From Candidatus Woesearchaeota archaeon (lineage in GTDB: Archaea; Nanobdellota; Nanobdellia; Pacearchaeales; GW2011-AR1): a stretch of 64,000 bases of DNA. Shown one piece after another: positions 9,927-57,816 of the stretch. The notes under the pieces are model-generated. The model was not told where the DNA came from. It did not search any database and saw only the letters and a program-made list of their open reading frames with translations. The first letter of the stretch is position 1. Each line of letters starts with the position of its first letter. Position numbers and translations under genes: made by a program. The stretch lies in assembly GCA_964495875.1 (NCBI GenBank), contig CAZBWB010000001.1, positions 10,269-74,268 on the forward strand. The letters run 5' to 3'.

Positions 9927-11099
9927 ATGTGTCCTGAAAAAAAAATTGGGATTGAAAAAATAGTAGCTTATGTTCCGGGTTATTTTGTAAAACACGGTCT
10001 CTTAGACACTCGTAGAGGAAGAGAACCCCTGGAAACTTATAATAAACTCGGACAGAAACTTATGGCTGTGCCTGCTTCTTGTGAAGATGCTGTCACTCTG
10101 GCTGCCAATGCAGCAAGAAAAATATTGAAAAATATTTCTCCAGAAGAAATAGGAATGTTGTTCGCCGCAACTGAAAGCGGAGTTGATCAGTCAAAAGCAC
10201 TATCGACCTATTTACATGGACTTTTACATCTGCCATCTGATGTTGAAAATTCTGAAACAAAATTTGCTTGTCTTGCAGGAATAAATGCCCTTGGTCAAGC
10301 TTTTAACTGGATTAAAACAGGACAAAACAGAGGAAGATCTGCACTTATAGTGTGTTCAGACATAGCAAGGTATAGAAAGGGTTCTAGTCCTGAGCCGACA
10401 CAAGGAGCAGGAGCAGTGGCTATGCTTATTTCTGAAAATCCAAGTCTTGTAATCCTTAATGAACACAGAGGAATCTATTCTAAAGATGTTATGGATTTTT
10501 GGCGCCCGTTAAATTCTGAATATGCAGAGGTTAATGGAAGATTATCTATTGTACATTACTTAAGTGCAATTAAAGGAGCATATAGGGATTACAGAAAAAA
10601 AGGAGGAATGGCAGACCCTGACAGATTAGTCTTTCATACACCTTTTGCAAAATTGCCAAGACAAATCGGAGCCGAGCTTATTAAGATTATTGGGGAGGAA
10701 GAAGATTTAGGTGAATTTTCTGATGCTAAAATTAAAGAACTCGTTGAAAGAAAAATTGGTCCATCATTAATATATCCTGAATTAGTTGGAAATATATATA
10801 CTGCTTCAACTCTGCTTGCATTATTGAGTTTAATAGAAAATGAAAATTGTAAGGAAAAGACTCTTGGAATAGGAGCTTATGGCAGTGGTTGCGGTTCAAT
10901 ATTTCTTTCAGGAAAGGTTATCTGTGATAAATATAATTCTGGATTTAAAGAAGAGCTGGAAGACCGTATTGAATTACCTCCTAAAAAATATGACAGAGTT
11001 GTTTATGGTGGAGAAAGATTAGACATACCTGAACAAAAAGGCTGTGTCATAAAGAAAATAGGTGAGCGGGGTGACAGGTATTATGAATTCTTGGATTAA
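9927..11099 (+). CDS. Hydroxymethylglutaryl-CoA synthase (thiolase fold)
   Basis: ATESGVDQSKA, TKFACLAG (catalytic Cys context), HTPFAKL, GSGCG. Confidence 0.75.
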   Translation: MCPEKKIGIEKIVAYVPGYFVKHGLLDTRRGREPLETYNKLGQKLMAVPASCEDAVTLAANAARKILKNISPEEIGMLFAATESGVDQSKALSTYLHGLLHLPSDVENSETKFACLAGINALGQAFNWIKTGQNRGRSALIVCSDIARYRKGSSPEPTQGAGAVAMLISENPSLVILNEHRGIYSKDVMDFWRPLNSEYAEVNGRLSIVHYLSAIKGAYRDYRKKGGMADPDRLVFHTPFAKLPRQIGAELIKIIGEEEDLGEFSDAKIKELVERKIGPSLIYPELVGNIYTASTLLALLSLIENENCKEKTLGIGAYGSGCGSIFLSGKVICDKYNSGFKEELEDRIELPPKKYDRVVYGGERLDIPEQKGCVIKKIGERGDRYYEFLD

Positions 11100-16449: not shown

Positions 16450-19308
16450 ATGCCATTTATAAAAAAAATAGGGATGCACGGATTTAAGAGTTTTGTTAAA
16501 AAAACAGAGATTCCGTTCACATCCGGAATAAATGTCATTCTTGGTCCAAATGGTTCTGGAAAAAGTAATATTTCAGATGCACTATGTTTTGTCCTTGGAA
16601 GATTGAGCATAAAATCAATAAGGGCAGCCAGAGCAAAAAACTTAATTTTTATGGGAACAAAATCTGCATCTCCTGCAAAAGAAGCAATGGTGGAAATAGT
16701 GTTTGATAATTCTGACAAAACCTTTTCAATAGATAATAAAGAAATTTCAATTAAAAGGATTGTGAGAAAGAACAGCCAGAGCATATACAAAATCAATAAT
16801 GAAACAAAAACCCGGCAGGAAGTTTTGGCGTTATTGGCTCAGGCAGGAATAGACCCGAATGGTTTTAATATAATTTTGCAGGGCGAGATTCAAAATTTTG
16901 TAAGAATGCAGTCAGAAGAAAGGAGAAAAATTGTCGAAGAAGTTTCAGGAATTTCTGTTTATGAAATAAGAAAAGAAAAATCTCTCAGGGAATTGGAAAA
17001 AACAGAAGACAGGTTGAAAGAAGTGCTGGCAATATTAAGAGAAAGGACAATTTATCTGAACAATCTTGAAAAAGAAAGACAGCAGGCACTGAGATATAAG
17101 AAATTTGAAAGAGATATTAAAAGATACAAGGCAAGTCTGATTCATCATGATTTGACAAAAAAGAAAAAAGAAGCAAAAATTGTGGAGGAAGAAATTTCCA
17201 CAAAAGGAAAAGAGATAGAAAAATCCAAAAAACTAAATTTAACTATCAAAACTCTTATTGATAGTATTGAATCAAAAATAGACTCGATAAATTCTATTAT
17301 ACAAAAATCAACAGGACTTGAACAGGAAAAACTTAATCAGGAAATAGCAAATATAAGAGCAGAGCTTGCAGGAATAAATGTGAGAATTGAAAATTATCAA
17401 AACAAGATTTCGGATATAAAAAAGCAAAAACAGGAATCTGAAAAAATACTTCATGAGACTGAATCATCAATAAAAGAATTGAGAGAAAAATCTCCGAGCA
17501 AATCAAGAACACAAAAAGAAATAGAAGAGAAGAAAAAAGAGCTTGAAGAGCTTGAAAAGCAAAGAAAAAAATTTTACACAACAAAATCAGAACTTAAATC
17601 AATCAGAGGAGTAATTCATGACAAAAATACTCTTTTGCAAAATTTCACTAATGAATCAGAATTTCTGCTCAAACAGATAATCTCTTTCTCAAGAGACTTA
17701 TTTGACAAAAATACAAATGAAGAAAGGATTGATAAACTAAAAATTTCCCTTGCAGAAAAAAGAGAGCTTTTGGAAACATTGGGCAAACGTGAAATAAAAT
17801 TAGAAAAAATTTCCGCAGCAAATGAATATGAGATTGATAAACAGAATAAATTAATCAAAAAAATATCAAAGATGGATATCTGCCCTCTTTGTAAAAATAA
17901 AATCACCCAGGAACATATTGAAACTATACATAGAGAAGCATTTCCCCAAATCGAATCTCTGAAAAAAGAAATAGCAAATTCAGACAGGGAATTAACAGAA
18001 ATATATTCCAAAAAAGATATTGTTAAACAGGAAATAGAGCAGATGCTCTCTGAAATTTCAAAAAGAGAATCAGATTTAATCAAACTTTCAAATATAAACG
18101 AAAAGAAAGCTCAGATTAAAGTTCTTCAGGAAAAAATTGATTTGCTGAAAAAAGAGTTGTCTGAATTACATAAAAGAGAGAAAAATCTTGAAAATAATTT
18201 TGATGCAAATTCAAATATCGAGCAAAAATATGAAACCCTGAGAATTGAAATTCAGGAGATTTTATCCAGAAATAAAGAGAATATTACTTCAGAAATCTCA
18301 TTCAAACAAATGGAACTTGAGCGATTGAGAATTTCCCTGAATCAGCTAATGAGAGAAGAAGAGGATTTTGGAAAAGAACTTGAGGAACTTAAAAAAGAGA
18401 TGAATGAAAAAGAAAGAACACTTGAAAAAAAGAAAAAAATTGAACAGGAATTAATTGAAAAATTCCAAAAATTAATTTCAGAGAGAGATGCCCTGCAAAA
18501 GAAAATAAGAGAAAATGAAGCGAAATTATCTGCAAATCAGAATATAATCTATAACATTGAAAGTGATATCAATAATTTAAAAATAGATAAAGCAAGGCTC
18601 GATGCAGAAGTTGAAAATTTTGAAATAGAAATGCTAAATTTTCCGGATGTTGAAATAATAAAGGCAAGTAAAGACATGCTTTTGCAAAAATTAACAAGAG
18701 CTCAGGAAATCATATCCCGGATTGGCTCGGTAAATCTTCGTTCTCTGGAAGTTTATGAAAACATAAAAAAAGAATATGATTCGATAAAGGAAAAAACAGA
18801 AATCATAAACAAAGAAAAAGAAGGAATATTGAGAATAATTCATGAGATTGATATAAAAAAGAAAAAAACTTTTATGAAAACTCTTATTTCTCTTAATGAA
18901 ATTTTTTCCAGGAATTTCTCGCAATTGAGCGAAAAGGGGCATGTTTATCTCGAATTGGAAAACAAAAAAGAGCCTTTCTCGGGAGGACTCAGCATAACTG
19001 TAAAAACAGGGCACGGAAAATACTTTGATGTGAAATCTCTTTCAGGAGGAGAGCAGACGATTGTTGCCTTATCCTTAATTTTTGCAATCCAGGAATTAAG
19101 CCCGTATTATTTTTATATTTTGGATGAAATTGATGCAGCACTCGACAAGAGAAATTCTGCAAGACTCGCAACTTTGCTTACCAAATACATGAGAAAAGGG
19201 CAGTATATAGTAATTACCCATAACGATGAAATTATATCAAATGCCACAACCCTTTATGGCGTAAGCATGCATGATGGAATTAGTAAGATTGTTAGTTTGA
19301 GGGTTTAG
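16450..19308 (+). CDS. smc: SMC-family ATPase with a central Rad50-like CxxC hook in place of a hinge
   Basis: N-terminus FKSF..GPNGSGKSNISDALCFVLG, Q-loop ILQGEI, C-terminus LSGGEQTIVALSLIFAIQ and YILDEIDAALD (SMC-type). Midpoint CPLCKNKITQEH at aa 478-489 of 952. No glycine-rich hinge recognisable. Confidence 0.8.
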   Translation: MPFIKKIGMHGFKSFVKKTEIPFTSGINVILGPNGSGKSNISDALCFVLGRLSIKSIRAARAKNLIFMGTKSASPAKEAMVEIVFDNSDKTFSIDNKEISIKRIVRKNSQSIYKINNETKTRQEVLALLAQAGIDPNGFNIILQGEIQNFVRMQSEERRKIVEEVSGISVYEIRKEKSLRELEKTEDRLKEVLAILRERTIYLNNLEKERQQALRYKKFERDIKRYKASLIHHDLTKKKKEAKIVEEEISTKGKEIEKSKKLNLTIKTLIDSIESKIDSINSIIQKSTGLEQEKLNQEIANIRAELAGINVRIENYQNKISDIKKQKQESEKILHETESSIKELREKSPSKSRTQKEIEEKKKELEELEKQRKKFYTTKSELKSIRGVIHDKNTLLQNFTNESEFLLKQIISFSRDLFDKNTNEERIDKLKISLAEKRELLETLGKREIKLEKISAANEYEIDKQNKLIKKISKMDICPLCKNKITQEHIETIHREAFPQIESLKKEIANSDRELTEIYSKKDIVKQEIEQMLSEISKRESDLIKLSNINEKKAQIKVLQEKIDLLKKELSELHKREKNLENNFDANSNIEQKYETLRIEIQEILSRNKENITSEISFKQMELERLRISLNQLMREEEDFGKELEELKKEMNEKERTLEKKKKIEQELIEKFQKLISERDALQKKIRENEAKLSANQNIIYNIESDINNLKIDKARLDAEVENFEIEMLNFPDVEIIKASKDMLLQKLTRAQEIISRIGSVNLRSLEVYENIKKEYDSIKEKTEIINKEKEGILRIIHEIDIKKKKTFMKTLISLNEIFSRNFSQLSEKGHVYLELENKKEPFSGGLSITVKTGHGKYFDVKSLSGGEQTIVALSLIFAIQELSPYYFYILDEIDAALDKRNSARLATLLTKYMRKGQYIVITHNDEIISNATTLYGVSMHDGISKIVSLRV

Positions 19309-19871: not shown

Positions 19872-21086
19872 TTAATAGTAACTTTCTCCGAATTCTTCAG
19901 TTTTTTCTGGTTTCTTTGTTATCAAAACAATCATTACAACCAACAGAACCAAGAAGATTATTGCAAGTATAACTGTCAATACAACAACCGGACTTGCTAT
20001 TTTTTCTTCACCAGCACTGCCACTGAAATTAACTGTTCCAACAAGTTCATTTCCGGAAAAGACAAATACATCAAAATTGTATTGTTCATCTTCCATTTTT
20101 ATCGGAACTAACTTGCTTGAACCAGCCTGAACAACGACAGTCAATTCTTCTGCTGGATAAACCACTCTGTAAACTTTCAACTGGTTAGTTGGATTTAATA
20201 CCAATAGGTTATCTCCTGATTTTAGTGCAACTTCAGGGAAACCATTCTCGATAGCAACTTGCTTTGTAACAATGTTGTTGAAATCCTCGTTACCTACTTC
20301 AACTTCAAGGGTGTATATTCCAGATGCAACATCATAAGGAATTTCTAAGTAGATTCTTCCACTTACAGTATCCTCATCATCATCGTCATTGTAATCACAT
20401 TCCCATCCATCATCAGTCCATTCACATTCCAACTTACCTTCGATAGATACCAAATCTCCGAAATAAGCTGTTCTTTCAATATCTAATTCAGGAATTCTGA
20501 CAGTCACATCAATATCTTCCAAATCATTATAACCAGTATTTTTCAAGACAACATCAACAGGTGAAATTTGTCCTGCTTCGAGTTTGCTGCTTACAATTAT
20601 TGATTTGACATCTGCATCATATGAAGTTCTTTGAACGTTTATATTTTCATCTTCAACTTCTGTTTCAAAATCTGAATTCCAGATTCTTAAAGTCAAAGTC
20701 ATATCTTCACTAACTTCATCTTTATCAACTTCAGGAACTTTCAATGTTAAAGTTTTAACATAAGTGTTTCCATCTTCAACATCAAAATAAGAAGTAACGT
20801 CAGAGTCTTCTCCTTCGTTTCCTTCAAGTGTGGCTTTTACCCTAACATCTGATTCATCAACACCAGATTCAAAGTAAACTTTTATACTAACTGTATCACC
20901 AGCATTCAAACTTGCAGTGGAACAAGTAGTAATATCTATTCCATCTACTCTAAGTTCTGTTACTGTAAAGCCGTCTTCTTCAACAACAGTATACTGACTT
21001 GAAGCACTTACACCAGCTGCCAAAAATAAAAGAGTTGCGATTGCTAAAAAAGAAACCAAAGTTTTTTTAGCATTCATTTTTTTCAT
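19872..21086 (-). CDS. Secreted acidic surface protein with a C-terminal membrane anchor (S-layer/cell-surface candidate)
   Basis: N-terminal signal peptide KKTLVSFLAIATLLFLAAGVSA, acidic beta-rich body, C-terminal TM VVVLTVILAIIFLVLLVVMIVLI followed by KKPEK. Confidence 0.65.
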   Translation of the reverse strand: MKKMNAKKTLVSFLAIATLLFLAAGVSASSQYTVVEEDGFTVTELRVDGIDITTCSTASLNAGDTVSIKVYFESGVDESDVRVKATLEGNEGEDSDVTSYFDVEDGNTYVKTLTLKVPEVDKDEVSEDMTLTLRIWNSDFETEVEDENINVQRTSYDADVKSIIVSSKLEAGQISPVDVVLKNTGYNDLEDIDVTVRIPELDIERTAYFGDLVSIEGKLECEWTDDGWECDYNDDDDEDTVSGRIYLEIPYDVASGIYTLEVEVGNEDFNNIVTKQVAIENGFPEVALKSGDNLLVLNPTNQLKVYRVVYPAEELTVVVQAGSSKLVPIKMEDEQYNFDVFVFSGNELVGTVNFSGSAGEEKIASPVVVLTVILAIIFLVLLVVMIVLITKKPEKTEEFGESYY

Positions 21087-32395: not shown

Positions 32396-35300
32396 TTATT
32401 TACTAACATCTTCGACAACTTTCTTCGTTGCGGTTTTTTTCTCGTCTTCTTTTTTTATCAGAGGTCCGATAAGTTTGACGAGAAGTCCTGGCAATCCTGT
32501 TCCGATTGGCACAGGCTGATTAAGAATTATATTTTCAATAACACTCGCCAATTTATCTTTGCTTCCTTTTATCGTTGCATTGACAAACTGTCTTTCCGGA
32601 GTTTCAAAAGTTGCCCTTGCCAGTATCGAGGATTTTTGAGATATAATCCCCATTCGTGTGACACCTTTAATATTTCCTGTATTTGTCATTGCATCAGAAA
32701 TAAGTTTCAAATGCCTCATATCAATATTCAGTCCCTGAGTATTAATCACATTATAAATTTCATTTATTATTAATTGTCTTGCAACTTCAATTCCAAAAAC
32801 ATTGGCAACTTCATGGAAATCATTTGAAATAATTTTATCTTTATTAACTTCTTTAAACTGAATTATATCTTTCAAATTTGTTCCGAGAGTTATTATCACA
32901 TAATGCCCTTCTTTTTTCACAACCAAAACCTGACTGACTCCTTTAACACCAGAAATTATGGTTTTTTTCAATTTTTCTTTAAGCTGGTAAATTTCTTTGA
33001 AATTGAATTCAGAAGCATTTAATGTTATTGAATCTGCTTTTTCTTTTACCTTGAATCCAAGAGCATTGAGTCTATCCACGACTTTTTTTATTGAAGTATG
33101 AGTCTGCCTGAGTCCTTTCTTGTCTATTTTTATTTTGATTATTTTGTTGCTGAAATCAAGTTCAATCTCTGATGCTATTTCTTTTAAGGTAACTTCTTTA
33201 ATTTTTTCAGCCAAAATTTTCGCCTCTTTTTCATTGTCATATTCCTTATTGAGATAAATTTCCATTTTAGGGGATGAGGGTTTCTTTCTTGCATCAAAAA
33301 TCTCTATGAGTCTTGGAAGCCCCATAGTAATCTGCATTTCCTGAACACCTGCAAAATGGAAAACATTCAATGCCATCTGTGTAGATGGTTCACCAAAAGA
33401 CTGTGCAGTAACTATTCCGATAGCCTCACCCGGGTCTATTTTTTTCTTTAAGTGAAGTTTGGAAATATCCAAGCCATCGTCTCCATAAGTAATTTGTATA
33501 ATATTGTTGTTGCTGTCTCTTATCGTCCCGTCATATTCCACTCTTAAATCCTGTAATGCATTGGCAAGTCTCCTGTAAAGATAACCGGATTTTGGCGTTC
33601 TTAATGCAGTATCCATTAAACTATCCCTTCCTGTTACAGCACCGAAAAAAAATTCATCAGGCCTTAATCCTCTTATGAATGGGTTTTTGATAAATCCTCT
33701 TGCTTTTGGAGACAAATCATTTTTTTTGAAAAAAGATAGTGTCCTTCCGTCATAACCAATTTCAATTCTTTTTCCCCATAAAGCCTGTTGTCCGACACAG
33801 CATGCCATTTGTGTTATATTCAAAATATTCCCTCCGCCGCCGGATTTAATCATGTGATTGACAGGATTATTCTCAGGGAATTTTTCTTTTACAATCTCAC
33901 CGATTTTTGTTCGCATCTCATTTAAAACCTGGAGAACTCTAATTTCTCTTGATTCTTCTTCATTCTTTCCCGGAATTTTTTCAAGAACACCCTTGTTATA
34001 TGCCTCAATTATATCTTCTGTTTTTTTCTCAGCTTTCTTGATAATTTCCTCACCCTCATCAATAATGCTCTGGTCTAAATCTAAATCCTCAAGCGAGATT
34101 GTTATTCCCATGTCAGAGAGATAATTTTTTCCCAAATTGAATGCCTTTCTTATTGTCTCAAAAGTTTCATCTCTTCCTACAACTTTATCGAGTTCTTTAA
34201 CGAGTTCGCCATCTTCAGTCGCAAAAGCAGTTTTATCTATCTTACCTTTAAGGATTTTGCCTTCTTTGATTGAAAGAGAACTGTTTGAAAAATTAATTTT
34301 TGGCAAAATTTCTGAAAAAACCTCCAAACCTGTAACTGTTTTCTTTGAAACATATCTTTTTACTCCTGATTTGAAAAGTATCTGATTTGCATAATCTCCT
34401 GTAATTTCTTCTTTTCCTAATAAATAACTTCCGGTTATAGAGTCAGAGATACATCCGATAAGATTTGTATTGTTCTTCGGCGATATTAAATTTTCCTTAA
34501 CATCGAGAAGAATTTTTGCTTCTGCTCTTGCTTCTTCATTTTGCGGTGAATGAATATTCATTTCATCCCCGTCAAAATCTGCATTATACGGAGTGCATGC
34601 AGCAGGATGCAGTCTGAAAGTCCTTCCGGGAAGAACTTTTACATGATGGGCCATTAAACTTCCTCTATGCAAACTCGGATGCCTGTTAAACAGCACGATA
34701 TCTCCGTCTTGCAAATGCCTGTCAACTTTGTATCCCGGAATCAGTTCATTTATTATTTCTTCTTTAAGTTCAGGAGTTATTTTCTTTCTTTTTCCGTCCG
34801 GCCTTACAACGTAATTTGCACCAGGATAAATTTCTGCTCTTTTAATTAATTTTTTTAATCTTTCAATATTTAAGTCAGTAACATTTTCAGAAACAGTAAC
34901 TACTTTTGCAATTTCATAAGGGACTCCGATTTCATTAATCCCGATATACGGGTCAGGAGAAATAACTGTCCTTCCTGAATAATTAACTCTTTTTCCAGCA
35001 AGATTTTTTCTGATTCTTCCTTCTTTTCCTTTTATTCTTTCTGTAATTGTTTTCAAAGGTTGTCCGCTTCTGTGTCTTGCAGGAGGAATTCTTGTAACAG
35101 TATTGTCAAAAAAAGTTGTTATGTGGAACTGCAGTAAATCCCATAAATCTTCAATAATAACTTCCGGAGCTCCTGCATTCAAATTCTCCCAAAGTCTCTG
35201 ATTGGCTCTTATGATGTCAGAAAGTTTATGAGTTAAATCATCTTCGCTTCTTTCGCCTGTTTCAAGAATAATACTAGGTCTTACTGTTACAGGAGGAACC

Positions 35301-35890
35301 AAAAGTATCGTGAGAACGGCCCATTCTGGTCTGCATGTATAAGCATCAATACCGATTTTTTTTAATTCATTATCCGGGATATTAGAAAGTATTTCCCTTA
35401 TCTCTGTCGGAAATATTCTTTTCTTCCCCATATAAAAATTAGTTGGTTTGTCTAATTTTATTTTTTCATTAGTAGCACCGCAATGAGGGCATTTCCTTGC
35501 ATCTTTTGCTTTTTTTGCTCTTTCACTAAGTGAATATTTTTCCAAAACTTTATCAGCAAGCATTAATTTCCCACATTCTCTGCAAAAACATCTTAATCCA
35601 AGTTCTATAAGAGGAACATATTTTAAATGAATCACTGATCTTGCCAGGTCAATACTGCCGGAATGCCCCAAACATTCTTTGAGCCTTCCTCCGCAGGTTC
35701 TGCATCTCACTCCAGGATCAATCGCCCCCAATCTCAAATCCATTAAACCCCCGTCAACAGGATAACCATCGATATTATAAAGTTCAGGAGTCACGATTTT
35801 TGCAACCGACAATTTCTTAATCTTTTCCGGACTGAGCAATGAAAAACTTACTTCACTTATTTTTTTACGAATTGGCTTATTTCCCATCAT
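32396..35890 (-). CDS. rpoA: DNA-directed RNA polymerase subunit A, unsplit (A' and A'' in one ORF)
   Basis: N-terminal Zn motif CRTCGGRLKECLGH, catalytic NADFDGDEMN, then the A''-type GEAIGIVTAQSFGEPSTQMALNVFHFAG at about aa 820 in the same frame. No stop or restart seen. Confidence 0.9.
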   Translation of the reverse strand: MMGNKPIRKKISEVSFSLLSPEKIKKLSVAKIVTPELYNIDGYPVDGGLMDLRLGAIDPGVRCRTCGGRLKECLGHSGSIDLARSVIHLKYVPLIELGLRCFCRECGKLMLADKVLEKYSLSERAKKAKDARKCPHCGATNEKIKLDKPTNFYMGKKRIFPTEIREILSNIPDNELKKIGIDAYTCRPEWAVLTILLVPPVTVRPSIILETGERSEDDLTHKLSDIIRANQRLWENLNAGAPEVIIEDLWDLLQFHITTFFDNTVTRIPPARHRSGQPLKTITERIKGKEGRIRKNLAGKRVNYSGRTVISPDPYIGINEIGVPYEIAKVVTVSENVTDLNIERLKKLIKRAEIYPGANYVVRPDGKRKKITPELKEEIINELIPGYKVDRHLQDGDIVLFNRHPSLHRGSLMAHHVKVLPGRTFRLHPAACTPYNADFDGDEMNIHSPQNEEARAEAKILLDVKENLISPKNNTNLIGCISDSITGSYLLGKEEITGDYANQILFKSGVKRYVSKKTVTGLEVFSEILPKINFSNSSLSIKEGKILKGKIDKTAFATEDGELVKELDKVVGRDETFETIRKAFNLGKNYLSDMGITISLEDLDLDQSIIDEGEEIIKKAEKKTEDIIEAYNKGVLEKIPGKNEEESREIRVLQVLNEMRTKIGEIVKEKFPENNPVNHMIKSGGGGNILNITQMACCVGQQALWGKRIEIGYDGRTLSFFKKNDLSPKARGFIKNPFIRGLRPDEFFFGAVTGRDSLMDTALRTPKSGYLYRRLANALQDLRVEYDGTIRDSNNNIIQITYGDDGLDISKLHLKKKIDPGEAIGIVTAQSFGEPSTQMALNVFHFAGVQEMQITMGLPRLIEIFDARKKPSSPKMEIYLNKEYDNEKEAKILAEKIKEVTLKEIASEIELDFSNKIIKIKIDKKGLRQTHTSIKKVVDRLNALGFKVKEKADSITLNASEFNFKEIYQLKEKLKKTIISGVKGVSQVLVVKKEGHYVIITLGTNLKDIIQFKEVNKDKIISNDFHEVANVFGIEVARQLIINEIYNVINTQGLNIDMRHLKLISDAMTNTGNIKGVTRMGIISQKSSILARATFETPERQFVNATIKGSKDKLASVIENIILNQPVPIGTGLPGLLVKLIGPLIKKEDEKKTATKKVVEDVSK

Positions 35891-40707: not shown

Positions 40708-41040
40708 TCACAAAAATCCTTTTAGTTTCTCTTCAAATTCCTCTCCGGGAATAGCTCCTATAAATCTTTCCACGGGTTTTCCTTCTTTAAACAAAATAAA
40801 ATTAGGAATTGAATTAACTTCAAATTCCTGAGCCAGTTCTTTATTATCTTCAACATTGACTTTCGCGAATTTCACTTTTCCTTTAAATTTTTCAGAAAGT
40901 TCATCAATTACAGGCGCCATCATCAAACACGGCATGCACCATTCAGCAAAAAAGTCTACCAGAATCATACCTTGTTTTATAAATTTCTCAAATTCTCCAT
41001 GATTACCAATTTCCGGAACTTTATCATTATTTCCTGCCAT
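40708..41040 (-). CDS. trxA: Thioredoxin
   Basis: 110 aa with a thioredoxin fold. The active site is WCMPC, a variant of WCGPC. Confidence 0.8.
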   Translation of the reverse strand: MAGNNDKVPEIGNHGEFEKFIKQGMILVDFFAEWCMPCLMMAPVIDELSEKFKGKVKFAKVNVEDNKELAQEFEVNSIPNFILFKEGKPVERFIGAIPGEEFEEKLKGFL

Positions 41041-41148
41041 TTTACCAGACTCATTAGTTTTATAGAAATAAGCATATTTATAAAAGTTTTCTTAATATCT
41101 CTTTTAGATTATAATAATTCTTTTAAAGAGTTTCGGCCTTTACTTCTC

Positions 41149-41907
41149 ATGAAAAATAGAGGAGATTGTCTTCCTGATAAATTGTCTCCAGATAGATGGA
41201 AAGAATTGAGAAAATTTATGGATCTTTTTCGTGCAGTTGAGCCAAGTGTAGAATTAATTGCATTAACACAACCCTTAAAAAGACTTTCTTCACAAGGAAT
41301 AAAATCAGAGACTATTCCTGCTTACACTGCAAGGCATTGTTGGGAATCATATGACAAATATAATGAGGACCCAAAAAACAATTATGAACAAGATAAAGGA
41401 TTAACAAAAAGTTTGATTAAAAGAGAGCATACAACCCCTTTACAGGCAGTTAATTATGTTTTTGATGTTCTTAACACAAGTAAAAGTTTACAAGCACAAT
41501 GGACTCGTCATAAAATTGGAGTGGGATGGAGTTATAGAAGTACGCGATTTGTAGAAGCATCAGGCAATAATTTTGTATATAATACTTATGATTATATTGA
41601 AAATAAAGAGGATGTAATGAAACTCTTAAGGATTGATGAAGAAGTTGCAAAAAGAGCAGTAGAAATTTACGGTAAAAAAAGAGAGCTCAAAGCAACAAAA
41701 CAAGATTCAAGAAAAATAATGCCTGTCGAATTTGCAACAAATTGTTCTTTTTTTGCAAATGCTAGAGCATTAAGACATTTATTTAACCTCCGTCTTGAAA
41801 AACATGCAGAATGGGAAATCAGAAGAATGGCTGCAATGATGCTTGAAGAAGTGATGAAGTATACTCCAATAATTTTTGAAGATATTTATGAAAAATTCTC
41901 TAATTAA
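41149..41907 (+). CDS. thyX: Flavin-dependent thymidylate synthase
   Basis: ThyX motif context QAQWTRHKIGVGWSYRSTRF. The likely start is MKNRGD at 41149; the track ORF extends upstream antisense to trx. Confidence 0.8.
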   Translation: MKNRGDCLPDKLSPDRWKELRKFMDLFRAVEPSVELIALTQPLKRLSSQGIKSETIPAYTARHCWESYDKYNEDPKNNYEQDKGLTKSLIKREHTTPLQAVNYVFDVLNTSKSLQAQWTRHKIGVGWSYRSTRFVEASGNNFVYNTYDYIENKEDVMKLLRIDEEVAKRAVEIYGKKRELKATKQDSRKIMPVEFATNCSFFANARALRHLFNLRLEKHAEWEIRRMAAMMLEEVMKYTPIIFEDIYEKFSN

Positions 41908-56937: not shown

Positions 56938-57816
56938 ATGGAAAAAAAAGAGATAAATTCAGTAAAACAGGAACAAATTCACAATTTACTTTTTAATCGG
57001 GAGTTGGGATGGCAGGAAATAATCTATGATCTGATTAACACAGAGCAATTGGATGCTTGGAATATTGATATTATCGTCCTCGCAGACAAGTATTTGGAAA
57101 AAGTTAGGGAAATAGAAGAAGCAGATTTTTTTATTTCAAGTAAAGTATTGCTCGCAGCATCATTACTTCTGAGAATTAAAACAGAAATTCTCTTAAATAA
57201 ATATATAAGAAACATTGATGAAATTTTATTCGGAAAAAAAGAAGAAAAGAAAACTATTTTGGAAAGAATCGAATTGGACGAACAAATTCCAGAGATTATT
57301 CCAAAAACCCCTATTCCAAGATTCAAAAAAGTAACATTGCAGGAATTAATAGAATCTTTAAATAAAGCAATCACAACAGAGAACAGGAGAATTAAAAAAG
57401 AAATTATAAATCAGAATGCCTTAAGACAAAGTTCCTTTTTCCTTCCAAAAAGAAAGTTTAATATTAAAGATAAAATAAAGGAAATTTATGATAATCTGTT
57501 CAGACATTTAAAAGATGAGGGAAAAAAGAAAAAAATTTCATTTACTGAATTAATCGGAGAAAACAAAGAGGAAAAAATCATCTCTTTTCTTCCTTTGCTG
57601 CATCTGGAAAATCAAAAGAAAATCTGGCTTGAACAAGAAACTCATTTCGAAGAAATTTATATCTGGCTTAAAGAAATTTTTCTCAAACATAATCCTGACC
57701 CCTTTGCTGAATTAAGAGAAGAGATTGAAGAAGAAATTAAAGAACTCGACGAAGAGCAGAAAAAAAGATTAGAAAAAATTAACAAAGAATTTGAAGAACC
57801 AATCGGAGGGATTTAA
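56938..57816 (+). CDS. scpA: Segregation and condensation protein A (kleisin)
   Basis: WNIDIIVLADKYLEKV....FFISSKVLLAASLLLRIKTE; a C-terminal winged-helix region. Confidence 0.8.
   Translation: MEKKEINSVKQEQIHNLLFNRELGWQEIIYDLINTEQLDAWNIDIIVLADKYLEKVREIEEADFFISSKVLLAASLLLRIKTEILLNKYIRNIDEILFGKKEEKKTILERIELDEQIPEIIPKTPIPRFKKVTLQELIESLNKAITTENRRIKKEIINQNALRQSSFFLPKRKFNIKDKIKEIYDNLFRHLKDEGKKKKISFTELIGENKEEKIISFLPLLHLENQKKIWLEQETHFEEIYIWLKEIFLKHNPDPFAELREEIEEEIKELDEEQKKRLEKINKEFEEPIGGI

Follow-up and report, generated by a model that had tools for sequence, protein, structure and literature searches.

A putative Rad50-type zinc hook in place of the hinge in an SMC protein of Pacearchaeota

Results

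The smc gene and its protein

The DNA studied here, from now on referred to as the window, is a stretch of 64,000 nucleotides (nt) from a Candidatus Woesearchaeota archaeon assigned to the Pacearchaeales (contig CAZBWB010000001.1, positions 10,269 to 74,268 of the forward strand), and the subject of the analysis is its smc gene, whose product appears to carry a zinc-hook motif where other SMC proteins have a hinge. This combination was proposed in a first-pass annotation of the window made from the sequence alone. The gene is an open reading frame (ORF) at 16450..19308 on the + strand, with an ATG start and a continuous frame of 952 codons plus a stop codon, in agreement with the size and position given in that annotation. 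The following features were assigned within it.

16450..19308, + strand: smc, encoding a hinge-less SMC with a putative mid-protein zinc hook (ORF, SMC_N, SMC_prok_A, match to Protein Data Bank (PDB) entry 5xei)
16450..16992, + strand: N-terminal half of the ATPase head, residues 1-181 (aligns to the Pyrococcus Smc N-head 1xew_X over 1-181)
16993..17871, + strand: N-terminal (ascending) coiled-coil arm, residues 182-474 (AlphaFold2 (AF2) helices; collinear with the hinge-bearing SMC P0158 to residue 408)
17746..18027, + strand: Rad50-hook-like module, residues 433-526 (profile against PDB, Pfam PF04423, AF2, Foldseek)
17872..17907, + strand: hook apex loop, residues 475-486, with C478-P479-L480-C481 at nt 17881-17892 (AF2 non-helical turn; conservation)
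17908..18855, + strand: C-terminal (descending) coiled-coil arm, residues 487-802 (AF2 helices; collinear with P0158 from 627)
18856..19305, + strand: C-terminal half of the ATPase head, residues 803-952 (aligns to the Pyrococcus Smc C-head 3kta_B/1xew_Y over 803-951)

All motifs pointed out at first reading were found in the translated sequence. The Walker A motif (G32-S39, nt 16543-16566) lies in FKSF...GPNGSGKSNISDALCFVLG, the signature motif (residues 864-869) in LSGGEQTIVALSLIFAIQ, and LDEIDAALD (residues 891-899) makes up the Walker B / D-loop, while Cys478 and Cys481 were located at nt 17881-17892, within MDICPLCKNKITQEHIE, just as proposed. The protein contains three cysteines in all (46, 478 and 481), and glycine and proline are scarce across residues ~170-760.

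ATPase heads

In the N-terminal half the Walker A motif is accompanied by Arg58 and the Q-loop Q144, and the C-terminal half holds LSGGEQ (864-869, nt 19039-19056), Walker B (F888-D895, nt 19111-19134), a D-loop and the H-loop H924. An alignment of 51 orthologues revealed that the catalytic residues G32-S39, R58, Q144, S865-Q869, D892, E893, D895 and H924 are invariant. The Pfam family SMC_N covers residues 3-945 (E=3e-53) and the NCBIfam models SMC_prok_A and SMC_prok_B score 508.7 and 484.7 bits, while the NCBIfam Rad50 models (cutoffs 700-1087) give weak end-to-end alignments, the best of them reaching 107.8 bits against a cutoff of 700, and the ASRP model NF045487 gives 111.3 bits versus a cutoff of 300 and matches the C-terminal head only. 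The score of SMC_prok_A is below the equivalog cutoff of TIGR02169 (729.4); its best stretch aligns residues 3-474 with model positions 1-481 of 1165, and we infer that the shortfall comes from the missing hinge.

The best match in the PDB is Smc of Pyrococcus (5xei), with E=4e-105 for the single sequence and 7e-130 for the family profile, and every SMC1-6 head is ranked before the first Rad50 head (E about 1e-15 to 1e-14). The results of the full-length profile search of the PDB were filled by such head matches and are uninformative on the hook. The PDB ranking, the NCBIfam scores and the motif invariance indicate that the heads are clearly of SMC type and not of Rad50 type, as had been claimed, and a placement inside Rad50/SbcC, which had been named as the outcome that would overturn the claim, was not found (Smc E=4e-105 against ~1e-14 for Rad50, 508.7 against at most 108 bits, and a nested position in the SMC tree described below).

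Coiled-coil arms and the missing hinge

A full-length AF2 model, built with the 51 orthologues, proposes helices at residues 169-343, 354-415 and 424-474 in the N-terminal arm (predicted local distance difference test, pLDDT, about 80-90) and at 487-586, 590-601, 612-729, 741-758 and 764-826 in the C-terminal arm. The near-continuous helices 169-474 and 487-826 form one long intramolecular antiparallel coiled-coil arm in the model; at its apex the helix stops at 474, is followed by a 12-residue non-helical turn (475-486) and resumes at 487. The coil is interrupted at 344-353 and 602-611, about 125-130 residues either side of the apex, and the two interruptions therefore match what is expected for antiparallel pairing. 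With ~300 residues per strand at 0.148 nm per residue the arm would be roughly 44 nm long.

No match to SMC_hinge (PF06470) was obtained when the 952-aa protein was scanned with Pfam. Of 151 related representatives, 97 were shown to have a hinge by a custom hidden Markov model (HMM) built from four relatives, which matched neither the 952-aa SMC nor any member of its family, and no globular domain is seen between the arms in the AF2 models (full-length and residues 433-526). The lack of a hinge noted at first reading was thus confirmed by three approaches, none of which gave any sign of a cryptic one. In a BLASTP comparison with P0158, the closest hinge-bearing SMC (1140 aa), two blocks were aligned, each with 43% identity: residues 1-408 with 1-410, and 627-950 with 809-1138. 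About 400 central residues of P0158 thus correspond to about 219 in the 952-aa protein. When the full-length model was run through Foldseek, SMC-family complexes were returned as expected and the apex was beyond the resolution of the search.

Among the related proteins there are also mini-SMCs with a normal hinge and much shorter arms (P0151, 943 aa; P0156, 963 aa; P0205, P0216, P0219 and P0222, ~810-840 aa), in which the hinge begins at residue ~335-410 rather than ~500, and arm length therefore varies widely among related SMCs.

Similarity of the apex to Rad50 zinc hooks

Two profiles were made of the hook region, one from divergent representatives (A3) and one from close orthologues only (A2). 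When A3 was compared with the PDB the top four matches were all Rad50 hooks, namely 1l8d (E=2.5e-8) and 6zff (7.5e-8) from P. furiosus and 5gox (2.9e-5) and 9q9h (7.9e-4) from human, each aligned over about 90 residues with the CPxC in register and followed by L/I-T-x-E-H, while the next match was an unrelated coiled coil (E=0.007). The likeness to the archaeal Rad50 hook, which had been pointed out in the first-pass annotation, is hence borne out for P. furiosus and extends to human RAD50. In Pfam, Rad50_zn_hook (PF04423) is the top family for the hook segment of the window (15.9-18.3 bits); it is matched by 28 of 30 divergent members (best E=1.3e-7), and its gathering score is exceeded by two full-length orthologues (26.2 bits).

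As controls for specificity, native or altered Pyrococcus hook fragments were scored, and 97 hinge-bearing SMCs served as negatives. The native fragment gave 38.1 bits, which fell to 17.1 bits when CPVC was changed to AAVA, to 7.6 bits when the 13-residue core was masked, to 17.0 +- 3.5 bits (maximum 26.3) when the flanks were shuffled and the core kept, and to 0.6 bits when the fragment was fully shuffled, while none of the 97 hinge-bearing SMCs scored at all. The similarity therefore resides in the core and in the ordered flanks and not in coiled-coil composition. Taken as a matter of sequence, the apex module is significantly and specifically similar to Rad50 hooks.

Structure prediction of residues 433-526 with the divergent alignment proposes a helical hairpin with a 13-residue apex loop (pLDDT 96, predicted template modelling score (pTM) 0.79). 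In Foldseek the first three ranks for this hairpin are 1l8d_B and 1l8d_A (template modelling score (TM) 0.78/0.72, root mean square deviation 3.0 Å) and 5gox.

Conservation of the CPxC motif

The motif is present, single and mid-protein, in 120 of the 120 closest database clusters (68-100% identity), which are 944-959 aa long except for one entry of 870 aa, and C478, P479, C481 and H489 are invariant in close orthologues (n=51). A search of 1.84 billion representatives recovered the same architecture down to 40% identity (946-1023 aa), and all representatives spanning the region carry CPxC followed by [ILV]-[TSD]-x-x-[HYE]. When 30 divergent members were aligned, identity to the query ranged from 15 to 51% in this region, and no column was invariant other than C, P and C, with identity otherwise dropping to 15-35%; at the position of H489 divergent members have Y, E or A instead, and H494, present here, is not conserved. 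The hook-SMC is encoded by 49 species-representative genomes and the motif was found in all 48 loci that include the midpoint. Conservation of the CxxC in orthologues, on which the proposal had been made to depend, was thereby observed at every level compared. As judged from these alignments the CPxC is conserved far beyond chance and the hook is under strong purifying selection.

In two of the loci, L045 (4870-6498 / 6492-7649) and L048 (7796-9595 / 9505-10785), the hook-SMC frame is split into two overlapping ORFs, which may reflect a frameshift or a sequencing error.

Phylogeny and variant forms

A neighbour-joining tree was calculated from 706 columns of the head and proximal arm in 117 representatives; the tree is distance-based and without a Rad50 outgroup, so that placement relative to Rad50 is given by the profile scores. 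The hook proteins, together with four short hinge-less proteins, form one clade (100/100 bootstrap), the successive sister groups of which are all hinge-bearing archaeal SMCs. Named members of the clade are Pacearchaeota, or carry generic Nanoarchaeota / Woesearchaeota labels in some assemblies, while the closest hinge-bearing SMCs for which a name is given belong to Woesearchaeota, Nanoarchaeota or Nanoarchaeia and in no case to Pacearchaeota. Since the clade is nested within hinge-bearing SMCs of Woesearchaeota/Nanoarchaeota the hook is the derived state, and the tree is most simply read as showing that the hinge was replaced, within an orthologous Smc, on the stem of Pacearchaeota. On this evidence the putative hook is no peculiarity of one gene but is shared by the whole Pacearchaeota clade, and, judged from the sequences and the 49 loci compared, the hook-SMC may be the one SMC of the lineage.

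The short forms (P0140, P0143, P0144 and P0147; also PIU75690.1 and OYT41877.1) are ~780-804 aa long and lack a hinge, a CxxC and any midpoint cysteine; no copy is present in the window. One of them, P0147, is basal (72% support), and in its case loss of the hinge may have come first.

Two hook-SMC loci, L023 and L019, are found on contigs titled 'Candidatus Paceibacterota bacterium' (389-kb) and 'Candidatus Aenigmarchaeum sp.', respectively; these are probably mislabelled or mis-binned records and not occurrences outside Pacearchaeota. Several hook-SMC orthologues (L021, L028, L031, L032, L033, L038, L040, P0123 and P0129) are ~1460-1530 aa long, being lengthened by a ~525-residue insertion just after Walker A, which in P0123 bears the domains Intein_splicing and LAGLIDADG_3. 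The same two domains are found in hinge-bearing relatives of ~1660-1700 aa (precomputed Pfam).

ScpA and other partner genes

The window also encodes the kleisin ScpA, at the position where it had first been annotated.

56938..57816, + strand: scpA, kleisin partner, 292 aa (PF02616 SMC_ScpA, E=1.6e-13)

Homologues of this ScpA number 3330, the top 120 of which are 70-87% identical and named Pacearchaeota/Nanoarchaeota, and four homologues are located on contigs equal in size to the contigs of hook-SMC orthologues (401355, 115164, 124472 and 207866). The conservation of ScpA across the clade alongside the SMC orthologues supports the earlier expectation of an SMC-ScpA complex, as far as gene content can tell. 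No ScpB domain was identified among the scanned ORFs of the window; archaeal Smc complexes are commonly without ScpB (PMC7055376).

Neither rad50 nor mre11 turned up in the 64 kb of the window, nor in the 711 kb of flanking DNA taken from 49 related genomes; for rad50 this means little, as the DNA examined totals about one genome-equivalent. With the same limit, no second SMC/Rad50-like ATPase, no ScpA and no other linked partner was identified within 10 kb of the gene at any of the 49 related loci. The absence of mre11 beside smc had been noted previously and holds for the window, where the neighbours are RNase HII, a short ORF, a 404-aa ORF and an AP-endonuclease-like gene.

Discussion

An Smc with a putative hook for a hinge

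The protein is probably the Smc orthologue of a Pacearchaeota (DPANN) archaeon in which the hinge has been replaced by a Rad50-type hook, and which would form a zinc-bridged homodimer working as Smc-ScpA. According to this proposal the hinge and the hinge-proximal coil, comprising about 400 residues in the nearest relatives, would have been replaced by a ~220-residue module ending in the zinc hook. Each chain would fold back into an antiparallel arm with the SMC head at one end and the C478-P-L-C481 turn at the other. In the P. furiosus Rad50 structure 1L8D the zinc is coordinated by four cysteines from two chains. With two apex cysteines per chain and the chemistry of the Rad50 hook, a four-ligand zinc site would need two chains, so that two protomers would contribute two cysteines each to one tetrahedral Zn2+ and give a constitutive apex homodimer as in Rad50. 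Head engagement would be ATP-dependent and the heads bridged by the kleisin ScpA as in ordinary Smc-ScpA, and the complex, probably a binary Smc-ScpA without ScpB, would serve to fold and segregate the chromosome in the manner of other prokaryotic condensins. That the protein binds zinc, dimerises by its hook, interacts with ScpA and has this cellular function is thus predicted. We infer that such a mechanism is plausible, since the equivalent engineered design Smc(Zh) works (PMC5344682).

Several observations weigh against this proposal. The significance of the match to Rad50 hooks comes from the divergent-family profile A3, while A2 gave no significant match in the PDB (1l8d E=0.62), and the hook segment of the window itself stays, with 15.9-18.3 bits, below the Pfam gathering cutoff of 24.3. 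In Foldseek the hairpin model obtained weak E-values (0.03-0.5), which is normal for a fold of this kind, and the ranking of hooks is therefore corroboration only. The heads were poorly modelled by AF2 (pLDDT below 50), which leaves their identity to be decided by sequence. Finally, in four short members of the clade the hook is missing and each arm is reduced by ~65-80 residues; these are never monophyletic, at least one of them grouping with hook forms (92% bootstrap). As short hook-less forms sit in the clade the hook is not indispensable to every member, and since one is nested among hook forms the module has been lost again at least once.

A bolder version of the Smc-ScpA proposal can be imagined, in which an ancestor of Pacearchaeota captured the hook by recombination from its own rad50 and the protein has a dual role, folding the chromosome with ScpA and bridging DNA molecules or ends by Rad50-like hook-hook contacts, thereby offsetting a reduced or missing Mre11-Rad50; we regard it as speculative and improbable. 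In its weaker version the protein would simply be the first natural SMC dimerising by a zinc hook, and if this is true the DNA-binding and gate functions of the hinge are dispensable for Smc-kleisin action in nature.

Alternative explanations

Unlikely, although the best of the alternatives, is that the protein is a specialised SMC-family ATPase with a Rad50-like role, acquired in addition or instead, such as DNA-end tethering or repair, with or without another nuclease partner, and that it is not, or not only, a condensin. The hook would then represent functional convergence on Rad50 in a reduced genome. DPANN genomes are reduced, the hook module is significantly Rad50-like, and rad50 and mre11 were not seen in the window or the flanks, all of which would fit. 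On the other side, the heads are unambiguously of Smc type and ScpA is conserved alongside, a nuclease gene is linked in 0 of 49 loci, and the non-detection of rad50 in about one genome-equivalent of DNA carries little weight. Nor does a hook alone imply a Rad50-like function, because Smc(Zh), an engineered protein with such a hook, works as Smc normally does (PMC5344682).

A shade less probable still is that the CPxC turn serves to cap the apex structurally, for instance as an intramolecular metal or redox site formed with nearby histidines, and that the protein dimerises only via heads, arms or ScpA. With H489 invariant in close orthologues and H494 present, a C2H2-like site is formally conceivable, short hook-less clade members exist, and hinge-less actinobacterial SMCs without CxxC have been reported (PMC12153180). 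However, H494 is not conserved and H489 changes to Y, E or A in divergent members where C-P-x-C is invariant, a histidine at the same spacing is found in P. furiosus Rad50 (CPVCGRELTDEH), and the similarity to Rad50 hooks is in register over about 90 residues, well beyond the motif. An intramolecular C2H2-like site made by H489/H494 was rejected on the lack of conservation of H494 and on the H489 position being shared with P. furiosus Rad50.

That the protein is a divergent Rad50/SbcC orthologue with SMC-looking heads would account for the apex zinc-hook motif, the absence of a hinge and the weak end-to-end alignments with the NCBIfam Rad50 models, but is very improbable. The Rad50 models give at most 108 bits (cutoffs 700-1087) against 485-509 bits for the SMC models, Smc heads in the PDB are matched with E about 1e-105 to 1e-130 against ~1e-14 for Rad50, the arms are 43% identical to and collinear with those of hinge-bearing SMCs, the family is nested in the SMC tree, and an adjacent mre11 occurs in 0 of 49 loci; a Rad50/SbcC identity is effectively refuted by these results. 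Least probable of all is an artefact of assembly or gene calling, such as a hinge-coding segment lost or mis-joined in a metagenome-assembled genome, which the origin of the sequence from uncultured, metagenome-derived genomes would allow but which is refuted by the recurrence of the same architecture (944-991 aa) in thousands of sequences (NCBI, JGI, ENA, Logan), in 49 species-representative genomes and in a separate assembly at read level, in which the neighbours recur too, as well as by the continuous frame and the strong purifying selection on the hook.

Comparison with known systems

Like prokaryotic Smc (Pyrococcus, B. subtilis; TIGR02169/TIGR02168) the hook-SMC has all Smc head motifs and long antiparallel arms, and ScpA is encoded in the genome; the head is about 50% identical to that of hinge-bearing Smc relatives, and identity is 43% out to residue 408 and from 627. 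It differs in that PF06470 is absent, in being about 190 residues shorter, in having the CPxC turn at the place of the hinge, and in scoring below the NCBIfam equivalog cutoff (508.7 versus 729.4 bits). With the Rad50/SbcC hook (PF04423; 1L8D, 6ZFF, 5GOX) it shares the apex CPxC followed by [ILV]-[TSD]-x-[ED]-H, as in CPVCGRELTDEH of P. furiosus, the profile similarity over ~90 residues and a predicted hairpin that superposes on 1L8D, whereas the heads and most of the arms are those of Smc, no Mre11 is linked and the partner encoded in the genome is a kleisin.

The same architecture has been made in the laboratory. B. subtilis Smc in which the hinge was exchanged for the P. furiosus Rad50 hook, Smc(Zh), supports normal growth and shows near-normal arm alignment (Burmann et al. 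2017, PMC5344682), and has exactly the arrangement proposed here, Smc heads and arms with a Rad50 zinc hook for a hinge. The converse swap, a Rad50-MukB-hinge chimera, works in fission-yeast Rad50 (Tatebe et al. 2020, PMC6969161). Unlike these two constructs the hook-SMC is natural and has diverged to 40% identity within its clade.

Hinge-less SMC variants explicitly without a CxxC hook have been reported from marine Actinobacteria (PMC12153180, 2025), and the short ~800-aa forms of Pacearchaeota, which lack cysteines at this position, are closer to these than the hook form is. ASRP (ClsN/coalescin, Sph1/2; NF045487; PMC9389158) and Lamassu LmuB (PMC10586767) are, like the hook-SMC, coiled-coil ABC ATPases with a zinc-hook motif, but they are about 590-650 aa long, have SMC-related or Rad50-like heads and are not orthologous to Smc, and no kleisin partnership is described for them in PMC9389158 and PMC10586767. 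Membership of ASRP/ClsN or LmuB was rejected for the present protein on scores and length (ASRP 111.3 versus 300 bits; 952 aa).

The rule in the field is that SMC goes with a hinge and a kleisin, and Rad50 with a zinc hook and Mre11 (PMC10586767; bioRxiv 10.1101/2024.01.07.573240). A literature search found no description of a DPANN/Pacearchaeota SMC with regard to hook or hinge, and a hook in SMC is unmentioned in surveys of SMC evolution including bioRxiv 10.1101/2024.01.07.573240. In the databases the hook-SMC is annotated as "chromosome segregation protein SMC" only and the hook is not flagged. Both modules are thus known and their combination has been engineered before, while its natural occurrence throughout a clade appears undescribed in the literature searched.

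As judged from its sequences the family would break, in a natural setting and throughout an archaeal lineage, the division between hinge/kleisin and hook/Mre11. Binding of DNA, a DNA gate and communication with the heads have all been ascribed to the hinge; in this family it would have been removed and a minimal dimerisation device kept, while heads, arms and kleisin are strongly conserved despite its loss. This would give independent support to the conclusion drawn from Smc(Zh), that the connection at the apex has to be stable and the arm correctly tuned. It would also be a clear instance of two branches of the SMC superfamily exchanging modules, or converging very closely, and the hinge-bearing sisters, the hook forms and the short hook-less forms provide a natural comparison series for the contribution of the hinge.

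Other genes of the window

The G+C content of the window is ~32% and its housekeeping genes are archaeal (RNA polymerase, EF-2, EF-1alpha, aminoacyl-tRNA synthetases, ThyX and class II ribonucleotide reductase). The gene for RNase HII is situated directly upstream of smc on the same strand, and 3' of smc, on the opposite strand, there is a short ORF (84-residue called product), followed by the 404-aa ORF and the AP-endonuclease-like gene. The smc gene and its neighbours were recovered again in an independent Logan assembly of an SRA run (L050).

The 404-aa ORF (19872-21086, - strand), two genes downstream of smc and also present in L050, encodes an acidic protein that has a hydrophobic segment near its N-terminus and a transmembrane-like one near its C-terminus; a Pfam scan of it gave no match. 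In most archaea RNA polymerase subunit A is encoded by separate A' and A'' genes, and in the window it is apparently a single ORF of 1164 aa (32396-35890, - strand) with Rpb1 domains 1-5. The ThyX ORF (40972-41907, + strand) has TTG as its listed start and a Thy1 domain from residue 111 only, so that the true start lies downstream of the listed one or else the protein has an uncharacterised N-terminal extension; the ORF overlaps a 110-aa ORF on the other strand (40708-41040).

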